A stretch of 64,000 nucleotides of DNA from Moorellales bacterium (GCA_049719955.1 JBNARC010000002.1:77626-141625), one strand, 5' to 3'; counted from the stretch's first letter, positions 19,561 to 61,240 are shown. The notes: generated by a model from the letters alone, not told the origin. Numbers and translations are program-made.

Positions 19561-19594
19561 GGTCTAATCCCTCCCGTGCCCATTTCTCACGAGG

Positions 19595-19645
19595 CTAGTA
19601 GTGTCTGGCGCCGCCCTCGACGTTGATACTCTGTCCGGTTATAAA
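19595..19645 (-). pseudogene. Orphan 3' stub of an SDR gene (last 16 codons plus stop)
   Basis: Minus-strand FITGQSINVEGGARHY* against FITGQNINVEGGARHY* at the end of the intact SDR 20147..20914. No upstream SDR reading frame. Confidence 0.6.
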
Positions 19646-19767
19646 CCGCCGCCATGTACCGCCGTCCAAAGGACAGTACCAAGTGGGCAGTATGGTCACG
19701 AAAGCCGCCTGAAGGCCCTGAATTAATTATAGCCCTTCAATATAAATTAAGAATATCGGGGAAGTAT

Positions 19768-20007: not shown

Positions 20008-20146
20008 CTACAATATACGGTTATCAAAGACCGGTTTCTCTGGGCCAACCGATTACTAACACAGGCTGCTAGAAGCCCTTCTGGCCACCGTTTTCCGCTT
20101 CGCGGTCGGCGGTGGCGTTGAGTTGGGTGGCGCCCAGCGGCACACG

Positions 20147-20914
20147 CTAGTAATGGCGGGCACCGCCCTCTACGTTGATGTTCTGTCCGGTTATGAACCC
20201 ACTATCGTCCGAGGCCAAGAATACCAACACTCCTTCCAAATCCTCGGGCTCCATAGGACGCTTGAAGATGCGCTGCTCCATAGCCACCTTGTAGATAAAC
20301 TCCATTTCGGCCGGGTCGCTGGCAAGCCCCTTGGCCGCCTCGGTCATAGTGAACCCCGGCGTAATGGAGTTCACCCTGATCCCGTACTCTCCCACCTCGC
20401 GAGCCAACGCCCGGGTTAGCGCCCAAATTGCTCCCTTAGAGGCCACATAGTGGCTCAGCAAGGGAGCGCCCTCGATGATGGTGGCGGAGGAAATATTGAT
20501 GATTACCCCTCCACCCTGTTTTTTCATCTGCGGCACTACCGCCCGGCAACAGTTCCAGACCCCCTTCACGTTTACGGCGAAGACCGCGTCCCACTCTTCC
20601 TCCGGGATCGCGTCGAAAGGCTTTAGTTTAAGCCCTCCCAAAAAGGCCGCGTTGTTTACCAAAATGTCGATACGGCCGAACGCGCCCACGGTTTCTTCCG
20701 CCATTTGCTTCACCCGGTCGAATCGGGTTACGTCTACCTGTATACCCAGTACTTCACTCCCCTGAGCTTTGAGCAGGTCTACGGTGCCACCCGGGTCGAG
20801 AATATCGGCCACCACCACCCTGGCGCCCTCCCGACCCAGGCGCCGTGCGAACACCCGGCCGATCCCGCGAGCCGCGCCCGTAACTATGGCCACCCGGCCC
20901 TCCAACCCCGGCAC
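20147..20914 (-). CDS. Short-chain dehydrogenase/reductase (FabG-like)
   Basis: 255 aa. VAIVTGAARGIG, NNAA, and Y..ASK catalytic pattern (SHYVASKGA). Confidence 0.9.
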   Translation of the reverse strand: MPGLEGRVAIVTGAARGIGRVFARRLGREGARVVVADILDPGGTVDLLKAQGSEVLGIQVDVTRFDRVKQMAEETVGAFGRIDILVNNAAFLGGLKLKPFDAIPEEEWDAVFAVNVKGVWNCCRAVVPQMKKQGGGVIINISSATIIEGAPLLSHYVASKGAIWALTRALAREVGEYGIRVNSITPGFTMTEAAKGLASDPAEMEFIYKVAMEQRIFKRPMEPEDLEGVLVFLASDDSGFITGQNINVEGGARHY

Positions 20915-29532: not shown

Positions 29533-29568
29533 GGCCGAACGGCGCTGACGTATCCCCTGTTTCCTCCA

Positions 29569-29653
29569 GGCGGTACCGGGTGCTCCCCGTTCGAACTATC
29601 ACCTCGCCGGGCTCGGTGCGCAAGATTGCCTTAGCGGGTCTGGTTCCCACCGC
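29569..29653 (-). repeat. Short-form copy of the structured repeat family
   Basis: GGCGGTACCGGGTGCTCCCCGTTCGAACTATCACCTCGCCGG... shares the closing-stem strand and the CACCTCGCCG arm with the full copies. Confidence 0.6.
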
Positions 29654-29705
29654 AAACGGTCTGGTCCGTCCGGGAGCGGATCCCGGACGGTGCCGGGAGT
29701 GCACC

Positions 29706-36840: not shown

Positions 36841-36870
36841 CCCTCCCCACCTGAACGTCGTGCCGCGACC

Positions 36871-37086
36871 CCGGCGGGCAGGGTTGGATTCCCCGAGTAC
36901 ATTGGAGCCTCGCCGGGCACCGAGCTTAGCGAGGGCAAGCCTGGAGGCGGGCCGAAGGCCACGGATGGCCGAAGCGGCGGGGCGCCATGGACGGCGCTTC
37001 CGCCGGGCGCCCGCCGGAGGGCGAAGCCCGAGCCCTAGCTCGGTCGGCGAGGCGAGAGTACGAGGGGAACCAACCCCGCCCGCCGG
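36871..37086 (+). repeat. Full-length structured palindromic repeat, copy B (216 nt)
   Basis: Closing stem CCGGCGGGCAGGGTTGGATTCCCC / GGGGAACCAACCCCGCCCGCCGG. Core shared with copies at 46864 and 60944 (GAGTACATTGG, TCGCCGGG, AGGCCACGGA, GGACGGCGC, GAGCCCTAG, GGTCGGCGAGG). Confidence 0.85.
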
Positions 37087-37156
37087 ATAACGCGCCTTGC
37101 CCCAGGGGCCTTGCCTCGGGGCCTGTCCGGTTAAATTCTATGCCCCACCGCTGCGG

Positions 37157-38284: not shown

Positions 38285-38510
38285 GCCATCGTCCCGGTCC
38301 GCCCCGCGCCCGGCGCGGGTTAATTTCTGGACGGGCAGGTCTCCTGGCTTCCTTCCTCGCCCTCCTTCCCTTCCCCGGGCGGTAGCGGCTAGACTCCGCC
38401 CCGACCGAGTGGGTCCGGCCGGCGGAAAAAGGAGGGCTCCGGTTCACAGTGGCGGGACCGCGCAGGATTCGCACCTGCTTCCCTATTCTCCGGGCCAACG
38501 CCCGGCACCC
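38236..38510 (-). promoter_or_regulatory. Cobalamin (B12) riboswitch
   Basis: Minus strand shows AATAGGGAAGCAGGTGCGAATCCTGCGCGGTCCCGCCACTGTGA core and B12 box AGCCAGGAGACCTGCC (38334-38349). Confidence 0.88.
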
Positions 38511-38570
38511 GCCCAGCTAGGTTGTTCAGAAACCCATATTCTACTTCCCTCCGGTTTTTCCTTCCGCCCG

Positions 38571-46786: not shown

Positions 46787-46863
46787 CTTTCTCCCCCCAG
46801 CCAGGTTATCCCTATCTCCCTTGGGTCAAGTTACCCCCACTTCGAAGGCGACTTGGGTTGACT

Positions 46864-47074
46864 GGCGGTACCGGGTCTCGCCTGAGTACATTGGCAACTC
46901 GCCGGGCACCGAACTTGGCGAGGCCGAGCGCGAAGGCGGGCCGGAGGCCACGGACGGCCGCAGCCGAGGAGCGCCATGGACGGCGCTTCCGAGGGGAGCC
47001 CGCCGTAGCGCGAAGGCTGAGCCCTAGTTTGGTCGGCGAGGTGACAGTACGAACGGCGAGCACCCGGTACCGCC
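46864..47074 (+). repeat. Full-length structured palindromic repeat, copy A (211 nt)
   Basis: Closing stem GGCGGTACCGGGTCTCGCC / GGCGAGCACCCGGTACCGCC. Paired arms and two apical hairpins with loops ACGGAC and ATGGAC. Confidence 0.85.
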
Positions 47075-47117
47075 CGTGGGAAGGTAGGATTACGTCAGCC
47101 CTTGAGGCCCTTTGTCG

Positions 47118-48415: not shown

Positions 48416-48489
48416 GCCTCGTCCCTCCTGGCAACAGAGCCGTTACTGTCAAGCCTACCGGCCATGAAACGTATTCCAAGCTTCCCCTA

Positions 48490-48564
48490 GGCGGTACCGG
48501 GTGCTCCCTTTCGTACTGTCACCTCGCCGACGATACTTGCGCTCGGCCTGCACCCGGTACCGCC
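48490..48564 (-). repeat. Short-form repeat copy (75 nt) with intact closing stem
   Basis: GGCGGTACCGGGTGC...GCACCCGGTACCGCC encloses TTCGTACTGTCACCTCGCCGACGATACTTGCGCTCGG. Confidence 0.75.
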
Positions 48565-48590
48565 AGAGCCAACTCAAGGCCGGGGATAAC

Positions 48591-49943
48591 TCAGCTACCG
48601 GCCCCCACACCATCGTCCCGGAGCGCGGCTCCCGGTGCCCATCGCTCCATACGCGCCCGGGCCTCACCCACCAGATAGAAAGAACCGGTAACCAGCACCA
48701 TATCCTCTTCCCCGGCCAGGCCTAACGCCCGATCCAGGGCGGCGTCCAAATCCGCCTCGGCGTACACCGCGCCCACGTGCCTGGCCGCCATACTCGCCAC
48801 CTTTTCCCAATCCCCCGCCCGGGGACTGAGGGGGCGGGTGACCACCACCGCCGCCGCCAAAGGGGCCAAAAGATCCATTATCGCCTCCCTCTCCTTGTCG
48901 GCCAGAAGCCCCACCACCAGGATGATCCGGCGAAAGGCCAGCCGCTCCACCGCCGCCCGCAGGGCCCGGGCGGCGTCCCGATTATGGGCGGCATCGAACG
49001 CCAGGAGCGGGCGGGTGGGCCAAAGCTCCAGCCGGGCCGGCCAGCTCACCCGGGCCAGACCCTCGCGCACCGCCTCCGGCCCGAGCTCAAGCCCCCGGAA
49101 GCGGGCCAGTACTTCGGCCGCCAACACGGCGGTAGCGGCGTTCGCCAGTTGGTGCGGTCCCAACAGAGGCAAGAAGAGTTCGGGATATTCCCGCCCCATC
49201 ACCGTGAGGTCGAAGCGCTGGCCCCGGGTATCCGCTTCCCGGGGCCGGATTTGGGTTTCTTCCTGCACCACGAAAAGCCGGGCCTCTACCTCCCGGCAAC
49301 GTTCTCTGACCGCCTCCAGGGCCTCCCCTTCGGCGGCGGTGACCGCGAAGCCGCCGGGCTTTATTATCCCCGCCTTGGTCCGGGCGATGGCCTCCAGGGT
49401 GCGGCCCAGGTGCTCCATGTGATCCCAACCCACGTTGGTGATCACGCTCACCAGGGGCATAGGGACGGCGTTGGTGGCGTCGTGCTCCCCGCCCATCCCT
49501 ACCTCCATTACCGCCACCTCTACCCCTTGCTCCCGGAAGCCCGCCCAGGCCATGGCGGTGAGCACCTCAAACTCCGTGGGCTCCTCGCCCCGTTCCGCCG
49601 CCAGCCCGGCCACCGCCGGCCGTACCGCTTCCACCAGCCGGGCGAACTCCTCGGGATTTATGGGTCGGCCGTCAATGCGGAAGCGTTCGGTGTAGGAAAC
49701 CAAATGAGGGGAAGTAAAAAGGCCGGTGCGGTAACCGGCCGCTTGCAGTATGCTGGCCAGCATGGCCGCCGTAGACCCCTTGCCGTTAGTGCCCCCCACG
49801 TGAACCACCGGCAGGTCCAGATGGGGATTACCCAGCCGCTCCAGTAGATCCCGGATGCGGTCCAGCCCCAGGTGGATGCCCAGGCGCAGGTAGCTTTCCA
49901 AATAGGCGACGGCTTCTCGGTAGTCCAAGGTTGCTCTCCCCAA
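48591..49943 (-). CDS. folC: Folylpolyglutamate synthase / dihydrofolate synthase
   Basis: 450 aa. VHVGGTNGKGST P-loop and Mur-ligase pattern. Confidence 0.9.
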   Translation of the reverse strand: MGRATLDYREAVAYLESYLRLGIHLGLDRIRDLLERLGNPHLDLPVVHVGGTNGKGSTAAMLASILQAAGYRTGLFTSPHLVSYTERFRIDGRPINPEEFARLVEAVRPAVAGLAAERGEEPTEFEVLTAMAWAGFREQGVEVAVMEVGMGGEHDATNAVPMPLVSVITNVGWDHMEHLGRTLEAIARTKAGIIKPGGFAVTAAEGEALEAVRERCREVEARLFVVQEETQIRPREADTRGQRFDLTVMGREYPELFLPLLGPHQLANAATAVLAAEVLARFRGLELGPEAVREGLARVSWPARLELWPTRPLLAFDAAHNRDAARALRAAVERLAFRRIILVVGLLADKEREAIMDLLAPLAAAVVVTRPLSPRAGDWEKVASMAARHVGAVYAEADLDAALDRALGLAGEEDMVLVTGSFYLVGEARARMERWAPGAALRDDGVGAGS

Positions 49944-52684: not shown

Positions 52685-52690
52685 GACTTA

Positions 52691-52734
52691 AGCTCGGCAC
52701 CCGGCGAGCTGCCAATGTACTCAGGAGAGCACCC
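52691..52734 (-). repeat. Half-copy of the repeat family between lon and the valS promoter
   Basis: AGCTCGGCACCCGGCGAGCTGCCAATGTACTCAGGAGAGCACCC matches the GAGTACATTGG arm. Confidence 0.6.
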
Positions 52735-52766
52735 ATGCCTGCCCGCAAACCCGAGCCAGCGACAAC

Positions 52767-55109
52767 TCAGGCCGACGACCGGCCGTTCACCAGGGCGTGG
52801 GGCAGCACCTCGTCCATGTGCCCCACCAGGATGAACTGCATCTTGCGCCGGATGTTGGCCGGGATCTCCTCCAGGTTCTTCTCGTTCTCCCGGGGCAGGA
52901 TTACGGTCTTAATCCCCGCCCGGTGCGCGGCCAGCACCTTCTCCTTAATGCCCCCCACCGGCAGCACCCGGCCGCGCAGGGTGATCTCTCCGGTCATGGC
53001 CACGTCGCGGCGCACCGGCTGGTTGGTCAGGGAAGAGGCCAGGGCCGTGGCCATGGTTATTCCCGCACTGGGCCCGTCCTTGGGGATGGCCCCCTCGGGC
53101 ACGTGGATGTGGAGGTCATACTTCTCGTAGAAATCCTCGGGAATGCCCAGCTCCTGAGCTTTAGAGCGGATGTAGCTAAACCCTGCCTGGGCGGATTCCC
53201 GCATCACCTCGCCCAGCTTGCCGGTAAGGGTGAGGTTACCCTTGCCCTTCACCACCGTGGCCTCCACGCTCAGCACTTCCCCGCCGTTCTCGGTCCAGGC
53301 CAGGCCCGTGGCCACCCCTACCTGGTTCTCTTCGTCAATGACTCCGTAGCGGTAGCGGGGTATGCCCAGCCAGTGGGGCAGGCTCTGGCTGCTCACCTTA
53401 ACGCTTTGCGCCTTACCGGTCACGATATCCCGGGCCACTTTCCGGCAGATGGTGGCTATCTGCCGCTCTAGATTCCGCACCCCCGCCTCCCGGGTGTACT
53501 CCCGGATTATGCGTCGGATGGCGTTCTCGGAGAGGCTGAGCTGCTTGGGCTTAAGCCCGTGCTCCTTGAGCTGGCGGGGCAGAAGGTGGCGGAGCGCAAT
53601 CTGCACCTTCTCCTCCTCGGTGTAGCCCGAGATGGTGATTACTTCCATCCGGTCCAGAAGCGGCCGGGGAATGGTATGCACCACGTTGGCGGTGGTGATG
53701 AAGAACACCTTGGAAAGATCAAAGGGCGATTCTATATAATGATCGCTGAAAGCGTGGTTCTGCTCCGGGTCCAGCACCTCCAGCAGCGCCGAGGTGGGGT
53801 CGCCCCGGAAGTCCATGCCCACCTTGTCGATCTCGTCCAGAAGGAACACCGGGTTCTTGGTGCCCGCCTGCTTCATGCCCTGGATGATGCGTCCGGGCAG
53901 GGCCCCCACGTAGGTGCGGCGGTGCCCCCGGATCTCGGCCTCGTCCCGAATGCCCCCCAGGGAGATGCGCACAAATTTCCGGCCCATGGCCCGGGCGATG
54001 GACTTGGCCAGCGAGGTCTTGCCCACCCCGGGCGGTCCTACAAAGCACAGGATGGGGCCCTTCATCTTCCGGGCCAGCTTGCGGATGGCCAGGTACTCCA
54101 GGATGCGGTCCTTAACCTCTTTCAGCCCGTAGTGGTCCTCATCCAGAATCTTCTCCGCCAGGGCCACGTCCAGCCGGTCCCTGGTCTGCTCGGCCCAAGG
54201 CAGGGACAGGAGCCAGTCCAGGTAGTTACGCACCACCGTGGCTTCGGCCACCATGGGCGGCATCTTTTCCAGCCGCTCTACTTCCTTAAGCGCCTTCTCC
54301 CGCACCTCTTTGGGCAGCCGGGCCTTGTCGATGCGCTCCCTAAGCTCCTCCACTTCCGCCGCCCGCTCGTCCTTCTCGCCCAGCTCCTTCTGGATGGCCT
54401 TTATCTGCTCCCGCAGGTAGTACTCCTTCTGGGTCTTTTCCATCTGCTTGCGCACCCGCTGGTTGATGCGCCGCTCCAGCTCCAGAATCTCCATCTCCTG
54501 GGCCAGAATGCGCAGCAAGAGCTCCAGCCTCTCCTTGACCTCCAGGGCCTCCAGCAGGGCCTGCTTGTCGGCCAGCTTAAGGTTCAGGTGGGCGGCGATG
54601 GCGTCCGCCAGCCGGCCGGGGTCGTCCAGGTTGGAAACCGTAACCACCGTCTCCGGCGGGATCTTCTTGCTGTTCTTCACGTACTCCTCAAATTGGTCCA
54701 GCAACGCCCGCACCAGGGCGTCTATCTCTACGTCCCGCTCCACCGGCGGCGAGCTTACCTGCACCTCCACCTCGAGATAAGGCTCCAGGCGCAGGAACCG
54801 CAAGATCACCCCTCGGGCCAATCCTTCCACCAGAATGCGGATGGTGCCTCCCGGCAGCTTCAGGAGTTGCTTAATCTCCGCCACCGTACCCACGGCGAAG
54901 ATGTCGCCCTCTCCGGGGTCGTCCGTCTCCGCCTCTTTCTGCATGGCCAGAAGTATGCGCCGGTCCTCCAGCATGGCCTGGTCAATAGCCGCCACCGACT
55001 TCTCCCGGCCCACGTCCAGGTGCACCACCATATGGGGGAACACCGCCACTCCCCGCAGGGGGAGCAAGGGTATGGTCCGTATCTCGCTGCCGCGTGGAAC
55101 CCGTAGCAT
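52767..55109 (-). CDS. lon: ATP-dependent protease LonA
   Basis: 780 aa. N-domain [18 protein letters not shown]+ GPPGVGKTS, protease DGPSAGITM. Confidence 0.95.
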
Positions 55110-60778: not shown

Positions 60779-60866
60779 TGGTGCGGGCGGGGGGACTTGA
60801 ACCCCCATGGGCCTGACACCCACCAGATCCTAAGTCTGGCGCGTCTGCCAGTTCCGCCACGCCCGC
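60779..60866 (-). tRNA. tRNA-Leu (anticodon UAG), CCA encoded
   Basis: GCGGGCG acceptor stem / CGCCCGC-ACCA. Anticodon arm CCAGA-CTTAGGA-TCTGG. Long variable arm. T-arm GGGGG-TTCAAGT-CCCCC. Confidence 0.9.
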
Positions 60867-60943
60867 CCGGCGATTTAAGCCTACCACATCGATTCCGCCA
60901 GCGTCAAGGGGTAGGAGCTCTGAGCGGATTCCCAGTTTGCCTT

Positions 60944-61154
60944 GGGCGGTTCGGGGTCTCCCCTTCGTACTGTCACCTCGCCGACCGAACTAGGGCTCGG
61001 GCTTCGCCCTCCGGCGGGCACTCGGCGGAGGCGCCGTCCGTGGCGCCCCGCCGCTTCGGCCGTCCGTGGCCTCCGGCCCGCCTTCGGACCTGCCCTTGCC
61101 AAGTTCGGTTCCCGGCGAAGTGCCAATGTACTCAGAGGAGACCCCGAACCGCCC
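60944..61154 (-). repeat. Full-length structured palindromic repeat, copy C (211 nt, inverted relative to copies A and B)
   Basis: Perfect 18-bp closing stem GGGCGGTTCGGGGTCTCC / GGAGACCCCGAACCGCCC. Same core as copies A and B when read on the minus strand. Confidence 0.85.
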
Positions 61155-61240
61155 GGCCACCCGCAACCGGAGATAACTCAGGTAGAGAAGGCCGACGCCC
61201 CTCCTTGACCGCGCCGCCGGCTTGTGTTACCTTGGGAGCG

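Follow-up and report, generated by a model that had tools for sequence, protein, structure and literature searches.

The closest described relatives of the element considered here are IS10 and IS50 (of Tn10 and Tn5) and their non-autonomous derivatives, which belong to the IS4 family of insertion sequences. This family is marked by the signature Y-(2)-R-(3)-E-(6)-K, located beyond the third catalytic residue, its transposases act on double-stranded ends, and IS10 prefers targets in which a symmetric consensus lies within the duplicated 9 bp. Other systems share with our family the use of a recurring intergenic signal, and not a unique site, as target, including IS1397 and ISKpn1 (which insert into REP sequences), class C group II introns (after terminators) and IS30 (its own ends), and to our knowledge none of these targets the -35 region. 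Insertion at a constant spacing ahead of transcription start signals, providing a safe haven in a compact genome, is the habit of Ty3 and Ty1 in yeast and of TRE in Dictyostelium, which are retroelements guided by transcription factors at RNA polymerase III genes.

Elements which are short, gene-less, intergenic and multi-copy, as ours are, include Correia/NEMIS, RUP, BOX, ERIC and REP/BIME, and a review (PMC10969869) describes long hairpins formed by the transcripts of such classical bacterial MITEs and palindromic repeats. A second point of comparison is the TwoAYGGAY motif (Rfam RF01731; Weinberg et al. 2010, PMC2864571), which has been an orphan since 2010. A September 2026 Minerva preprint describes this motif as multi-copy with an expansion resembling that of mobile elements, though leaving the question of mobility unresolved, notes that the Bacillota versions have an elongated basal stem, and cites a proposal that the AYGGAY loops are Csr/Rsm sites (10.64898/2026.09.22.753630).

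The locus analysed here lies in a 64,000-nt stretch of Moorellales DNA (the window, from the first letter of which positions are counted), in which an earlier note had described three copies of a palindromic structure, the third of which (copy C) it placed at 60944-61154, next to a tRNA-Leu gene. The perfect 18-bp closing stem claimed for copy C is real, with the arms GGGCGGTTCGGGGTCTCC (60944-60961) and GGAGACCCCGAACCGCCC (61137-61154) complementary at 18/18 positions. The claimed minus-strand core match to the other two copies was also recovered, as inverted-repeat matches of 84% over 202 nt to 46855-47056 and 88% over 173 nt to 36895-37067, and the covarying apical hairpin was seen again in a three-way alignment, in which GGGGCGCC...GGCGCCTCC of tip hairpin 2 in copy C corresponds to GGAGCGCC...GGCGCTTCC in the 46.8-kb copy, a compensated G-C to A-T double change. 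The interval itself was too narrow and covers merely the interior of the element, because conserved sequence extends past the closing stem to terminal inverted repeats (CTGAG...CTCAG) outside it; from the family alignment, an end search and direct reading of the termini, we place copy C at 60920-61181 (262 bp), with the sense strand, which carries the AYGGAY loops, being the minus strand.

The right (sense 3') terminal inverted repeat of copy C is degenerate (60920-60943, minus strand; CTGAGCGGATTCCCAGTTTGCCTT on the plus strand compared with CTGACGTATCCCCAGTTT for the family), and the left (sense 5') repeat (61155-61181; CTGAGTTATCTCCGGTTGCGGGTGGCC on the minus strand) is the family left end with three mismatches, such that the two ends (CTGAGTTATCTCC and CTGAGCGGATTCCC) are alike only at about 60% of positions. 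Beyond these lie the two halves of a presumed 9-bp target duplication, GTAGGAGCT (60911-60919) and GTAGAGAAG (61182-61190), which has decayed to 4/9 matching positions; clean duplications are known at other copies. Between the ends is a rod of about 210 nt, which we regard as a passenger, tipped by two short ACGGAC-loop hairpins on the minus strand which share a common basal stem (GGCGGGC/GCCCGCC). Hairpin 1 is GGCC-ACGGAC-GGCC (61058-61071, loop at 61062-61067), and hairpin 2 is CGGCGGGGCGCC-ACGGAC-GGCGCCTCCGCCG (61023-61053, loop at 61036-61041), with GGCGCC-ACGGAC-GGCGCC at its centre and with equivalents in other copies which align to RF01731. The predicted folding energy is -174.9 kcal/mol for the minus strand (z -9.3) and -155.1 kcal/mol for the plus strand, and the GC-rich palindrome gives rise to spurious open reading frames across copy C.

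The family is far larger than the three copies first claimed. A BLAST search of the 2.16-Mb, 62% GC Moorellales assembly with copy C returned 92 loci. Of these, 58 measure 170 nt or more and the other 34 less, which puts the genome total at about 58 full copies with 34 partial ones; the window alone contributes three full copies and five fragments. The other two full copies in the window, both with the plus strand as sense, are the type copy of the earlier note (46826-47098, ends approximate) and one with degenerate ends (36851-37095). A truncated copy on the minus strand (29545-29700, inner boundary approximate) has its end 12 nt upstream of the sequence TTGACA-17-TAGAGT before rplU (ribosomal protein L21), and an internally deleted mini-copy of about 125 bp (48469-48594), located between a Rex-like repressor gene and folC, retains both closing-stem arms. 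A further family fragment is found at 52690-52771 between lon and valS. We considered whether the half-copies at 48.5 and 52.7 kb might flank a 4-kb mobile element and rejected this, as the genes between them are valS and folC. Elements of 64 bp, barely more than two terminal repeats, are also present elsewhere in the genome (G000 C27:13345-13408, C36:17-80, C36:9649-9712 and C19:12792-12855). A search for the exact core word across species representatives found nothing. Relatives having the same ends, together with transposase fragments or intact copies, occur in several genera of the order (one carrier is Moorellaceae bacterium AZ2), and a cultured Moorellaceae isolate has about 150 element tips.

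Using crude gene calls (1,793 genes, 85% coding), the family copies were found to be mostly intergenic, and 53 of them could be assigned to same-direction (42), divergent (7) and convergent (4) gene pairs. These calls give only a weak orientation bias in the same-direction contexts (26 sense and 16 antisense). Many copies start 0-20 nt past the stop codon of the upstream gene and are therefore probably read through.

We are confident in reading copy C as a miniature transposon (MITE), non-autonomous and belonging to an insertion sequence of the IS4 family, and prefer this to the dedicated RNA gene or terminator/insulator suggested earlier because the family has terminal inverted repeats, 9-bp duplications, an IS4-family insertion sequence sharing the same ends, and an empty site in a sister species. 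The family ends are CTGAGTTATCCCC-type inverted repeats with CTGA[GC][GT]TATCCCC on both sides, which we take to resemble closely the outside end of IS10. Perfect 9-bp target duplications flank several copies (CACTGATCC, CGCCAAGCC, GGTTTAGGC and CCCTGAACG), and in the genus G005 they are found at 10/17 copies. The copy C family is also of the small size (262 bp for copy C), high copy number and lack of a transposase gene by which MITEs are recognised. It differs from classical MITEs in being GC-rich rather than AT-rich, in having a defined IS4 partner and in its base-pair-precise placement beside promoters, and from REP elements, which are much shorter and have neither inverted-repeat ends nor duplications.

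The partner is a 1,216-bp insertion sequence (G000 C21:171-1386) with the family ends, matching the right end of the MITE at 18 of the first 19 bases, and with the duplication GGCGAGTCG. It holds the sole intact match to its transposase in the genome, a predicted product of 361 aa which scores 227.6 bits against the NCBIfam IS4-family model NF033591 (cut-off 152) and 37.5 bits against the DDE domain model PF01609 (DDE_Tnp_1, cut-off 23), and in which the motif YGRRMDIEEKFKDFK fits Y-2-R-3-E-6-K. The family model, DDE domain, signature and 9-bp duplications are all features shared with IS10 and IS50, whereas at 361 aa the transposase is short in comparison with theirs. Judged by eye, the G+C content of the C21 insertion sequence looks lower than that of the MITEs.

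The empty site was found for the copy at C23:5860-6133, whose joined flanks align contiguously to G001:C1:54104-54601 in a sister species of the same genus. We suppose that its transposase would act in trans on the MITEs, which would be excised and then pasted in with a 9-bp staggered cut. Some of the 64-bp two-end elements carry near-perfect 9-bp duplications, and this suggests that the rod may not be needed for movement. With its own duplication at 4/9 and its ends degenerate, copy C is presumed to have been mobile from its membership of this family, and it is now an old insertion with decayed ends and probably immobile. G001 and G002 have no MITE at the tRNA-Leu promoter, but the DNA beyond the promoter is rearranged there and does not provide a clean empty site for copy C. 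The C23:5860-6133 copy sits 12 nt upstream of a groES promoter with a CIRCE operator, and the promoter in the sister species is uninterrupted (G001:C1:52604-56101).

The unusual habit of this transposon and its MITEs lies in their position: across nine genera, they are placed upstream of -35 boxes at a distance of exactly 12 bp. When we searched for matches to TTGACA (at least five of six positions) after the element ends in this genome, 15 were found at an offset of 12 nt, three at 11 and two at 13, with no more than two at any other offset, and 13/20 such ends also have TAnnnT at the right spacing compared with 12% in controls. The pattern TGGGGATRMSYCAG-N(0-30)-TTGAC gave 141 matches in 13 genomes from nine genera, with the gap exactly 12 nt in 113, 11 nt in eight and 13 nt in a further eight, while a reversed-pattern control gave no matches in the same 13 genomes. 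These 141 are drawn from 577 element tips, and TTGAC is thus found within 30 nt of about one end in four, or at roughly every second element; from the other side, an element end lies immediately before 16 of the genome's 116 strict (strongest-consensus) promoter-like sites. The C21 insertion sequence is itself 12 nt upstream of the TTGACG-17-TAAGAT promoter of another tRNA gene. No fixed orientation to the promoter was found, with right and left ends facing it in 13 and four cases here and in seven and five in G005.

The 12 nt correspond to the 9-bp duplication plus 3 nt. We found no consensus within the duplicated 9 bp, which is where the IS10 consensus lies, and the determinant is instead outside the duplication and on one side only, in the form of a -35 box 3 bp away. 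Target capture would thus place the start of the duplication 3 bp upstream of the -35 hexamer and leave the element end 12 bp from TTGAC. In the literature we searched, we came across neither a described Moorellales MITE nor an insertion sequence whose insertions keep a set distance from -35 boxes. The likeness to Ty3, Ty1 and TRE extends to the inclusion of tRNA genes amongst the targets (those next to copy C and the C21 insertion sequence), but the element here is a bacterial DDE transposon and not a member of those families.

As a speculative proposal, which is quite unlikely to hold in every part, we suggest that the IS4-family transposase captures promoter DNA held by the RNA polymerase sigma-A holoenzyme, or reads the -35 box itself, and integrates precisely 12 bp upstream in what would be a bacterial counterpart of Ty3-type targeting; that its MITEs are one vehicle multiplying the orphan TwoAYGGAY rod; and that the rod, when transcription from upstream genes runs through it, works as a single-stranded (RNA) module. 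If the targeting is true, it would give a way into the question of how promoters are read by a DDE transposase, and could also supply a tool for promoter-proximal insertion.

The nearness to promoters could in part reflect the survival of harmless insertions and not targeting. In its sharpest form this account holds that the transposase recognises just the short word TTGAC and that selection purges insertions within genes, leaving the copies beside promoters. We consider this doubtful but credible. TTGAC is the invariant part of the target, and our attempt to find target specificity beyond an ordinary promoter context failed, as the C which precedes TTGAC in 63% of targets is also found at 47% of MITE-free promoter-like sites. 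Yet most targets have a -10 partner, compared with just 116 of the 2433 occurrences of TTGAC in the genome, and in G005 8/10 of the copies with perfect duplications are at sites with a good -10, several of the perfect-duplication sites there having variant -35 boxes such as TTGTCT and TTGCAC.

Precise insertion beside promoters, whatever mixture of targeting and survival underlies it, also describes copy C. The tRNA-Leu gene (anticodon TAG) adjoins it at 60779-60866 on the minus strand as the earlier note had claimed, and reading along that strand the MITE end at 60920 is followed by 12 nt, the -35 sequence TTGACG (60902-60907), an 18-nt spacer, an extended -10 sequence TGgTAGGCT (TAGGCT at 60878-60883), 11 nt and then the tRNA. 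This promoter (60878-60907) was read by eye from the sequence, being too weak for a simple promoter scan, and its -35 and -10 elements are kept in G001 and G002 where no MITE abuts them. Copy C is beside tRNA-Leu because of the family habit of sitting 12 nt from TTGAC, and its nearness to the gene reflects promoter-proximal insertion instead of the link to tRNAs or operon ends that had been proposed. It is an ordinary member of a repeat family, and neither a tRNA-linked RNA nor a terminator is needed to explain it.

On the other side of copy C, a promoter-like site of a divergent metallo-beta-lactamase-fold gene (TTGACC-17-TACCTT, 61205-61233, plus strand) lies 23 nt from the other MITE end, and copy C would therefore have landed within a back-to-back divergent promoter region. 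G001 also has a family copy 12 nt from the promoter of the homologous metallo-beta-lactamase-fold gene. The closing stem of this G001 copy differs from that of copy C and the best G001 match to copy C lies elsewhere, which suggests that the two are probably independent insertions into the same promoter region, although one ancient insertion followed by rearrangement could also explain both. In the sister species, some 7 kb separate tRNA-Leu from the metallo-beta-lactamase-fold gene, with two more family copies near the tRNA side (G001:C16:15257-26847), and this gap may be an island or a repeat-mediated rearrangement.

The rod carried by the MITEs has evidently been kept paired. The earlier note had identified a third closing-stem variant in copy C, and such variation was found throughout the family with both arms changing together (complementarity of 15.96 within copies and 12.74 between copies, with 0/5000 permutations exceeding this). 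Both-arm variants specific to single copies are common and include GGATCC, GGGACC, GGAGCC, GGTTTC and the GGTTCG of copy C, whose GGTTCGGGG stem departs from that of the closest subfamily in a double change, C-G to G-C, present in no other copy examined, and the arms in G005 are wholly different in sequence and still pair. Since the terminal repeats and duplication of copy C have decayed to the extent noted above and its inner stem is perfect, the inner palindrome must have been kept paired while the ends decayed, and both-arm changes in decayed copies such as this may offer a clear example from nature of palindromes being maintained. The process responsible would act on both arms, and could be strand-blind or take the form of selection at the level of transposition.

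The strands of the rod are not equivalent. The folding strand chosen in the earlier note was the correct one, in that the sense strand is the more stable in 49/57 copies here and in 7/7 rods from other genera and families, but the reason given, an excess of wobble pairs, did not survive. Wobble counts made on minimum free energy folds are uninformative as the GC-rich sequence refolds, and the strand-neutral self-alignment used instead gave G.T and A.C mismatches in nearly equal numbers (405 and 365 here, 59 and 60 in G005). What distinguishes the sense strand is its purine-rich internal loops, with purine-purine and pyrimidine-pyrimidine mismatches numbering 759 and 196 here and 250 and 86 in G005, and with sense-strand loops also purine-rich in 6/7 other lineages. 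In our reading, a strand-specific constraint on the rod points to a single-stranded role, which would most simply be as RNA.

One alternative is that the hairpin matters as DNA, either because a cruciform or folded strand brings the transposon ends together during transposition, or because template switching at quasi-palindromes copies one arm to the other, in which case the covariation needs no RNA function. The frequency of both-arm variants particular to single copies fits this explanation, as do the unique double change and perfect inner stem of the otherwise decayed copy C, the paired but unrelated arms in G005 and the symmetry of G.T and A.C mismatches which is expected of a strand-blind process. 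Such a process leaves unexplained the purine-rich loop asymmetry conserved across lineages, however, and a role in transposition sits poorly with an autonomous insertion sequence that moves without a rod, with the near-perfect duplications of the 64-bp elements and with the double-stranded ends on which IS4-family transposases act; taken together, we find this alternative tenable but on balance improbable. The pairing of the rod carries a caution for RNA discovery, as covariation by itself is no proof of an RNA gene.

The tip of the rod looks like a divergent TwoAYGGAY rod, although no copy in this genome reaches the score required for membership of RF01731. At E <=10 there are 18 matches in the genome, all of them at MITE tips and on the sense strand, but with 17-24 bits they fall short of the gathering score of 43, and only model positions 45-113 are covered. 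The 36.9-kb copy is one of these (23.4 bits at 36951-37008), with its two AYGGAY hairpins aligning to positions 47-111, while copy C has no match at E <=10 and resembles the motif in structure, through its two ACGGAC loops on a common basal stem. Over the full length of the model, MITEs of this family score 38.2 bits in G005 and 35.8 bits in G016. The family is also like the TwoAYGGAY motif in its elongated basal stem, its multiple copies and its intergenic location, and RF01731 is the best Rfam match for the tip; it is unlike the motif as described in that the rod is bounded by transposon ends and duplications and has an identified transposase, a combination for which we found no report in the literature searched. 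The family links an orphan motif to a defined transposition mechanism, and this link to mobility is new. Above-threshold TwoAYGGAY rods from two other families of the phylum (G040, C52, and G031, C15) are long palindromes sharing a GCCAAACT/AGTTTGGC stem, and have different termini without the ends of this transposon family, and TwoAYGGAY rods may thus ride on several kinds of vehicle. We also observed that 17 consecutive positions of the Xanthomonas sRNA sX7 model (RF02226, positions 76-92) are identical to GGCGCC-ACGGAC-GGCGC at 61031-61048 in the window, which hints that sX7 includes a TwoAYGGAY-like hairpin.

This resemblance raises the possibility that the rod is a functional TwoAYGGAY-type RNA, for example one that binds CsrA, a regulator which recognises GGA loops, or serves as its decoy, with copy C acting as a minus-strand RNA. 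Such a role would be compatible with our reading of copy C as a MITE as it concerns what the passenger does, and we regard it as a tentative and somewhat unlikely suggestion. The genome has csrA (88 bits) and two GGA loops per copy would permit Csr/Rsm binding, for which the AYGGAY loops have been proposed as sites (10.64898/2026.09.22.753630), and a functional RNA would also accord with the tip-restricted, sense-strand RF01731 matches, the full-model matches in G005 and G016, the greater stability and purine-rich loops of the sense strand and the many copies filling the gap behind an upstream stop codon, where read-through is likely. It is harder to reconcile with the low scores in this genome and the absence of a match for copy C, with the weak orientation bias relative to flanking genes, and with a G005 subfamily which lacks GGA in hairpin 1. 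Copy C is moreover upstream of both divergent promoters and therefore neither transcribes it, such that no read-through of the rod would be expected at this locus, and a scan of 60920-61181 found no internal promoter or terminator-like site.

Finally, it is highly improbable that the element is a transcription terminator or insulator at gene boundaries, for although the rod is very stable and copies usually lie in, and often take up all of, the space from the preceding stop codon to the following promoter, there is no T-run after the element on either strand and no terminator-like site within copy C, which sits between two divergent promoters with nothing to terminate, either element end can face a promoter, and the placement is explained by an insertion targeting common to the coding insertion sequence.

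Two other features of the window were noted in the course of this work. At Rfam gathering thresholds the only matches were the tRNA and a cobalamin riboswitch, the latter on the minus strand at 38317-38527 with a score of 99.4 bits. The window also contains an unrelated 54-nt direct repeat pair (19594-19647 and 20146-20199), the two copies of which are 552 nt apart and 85% identical.
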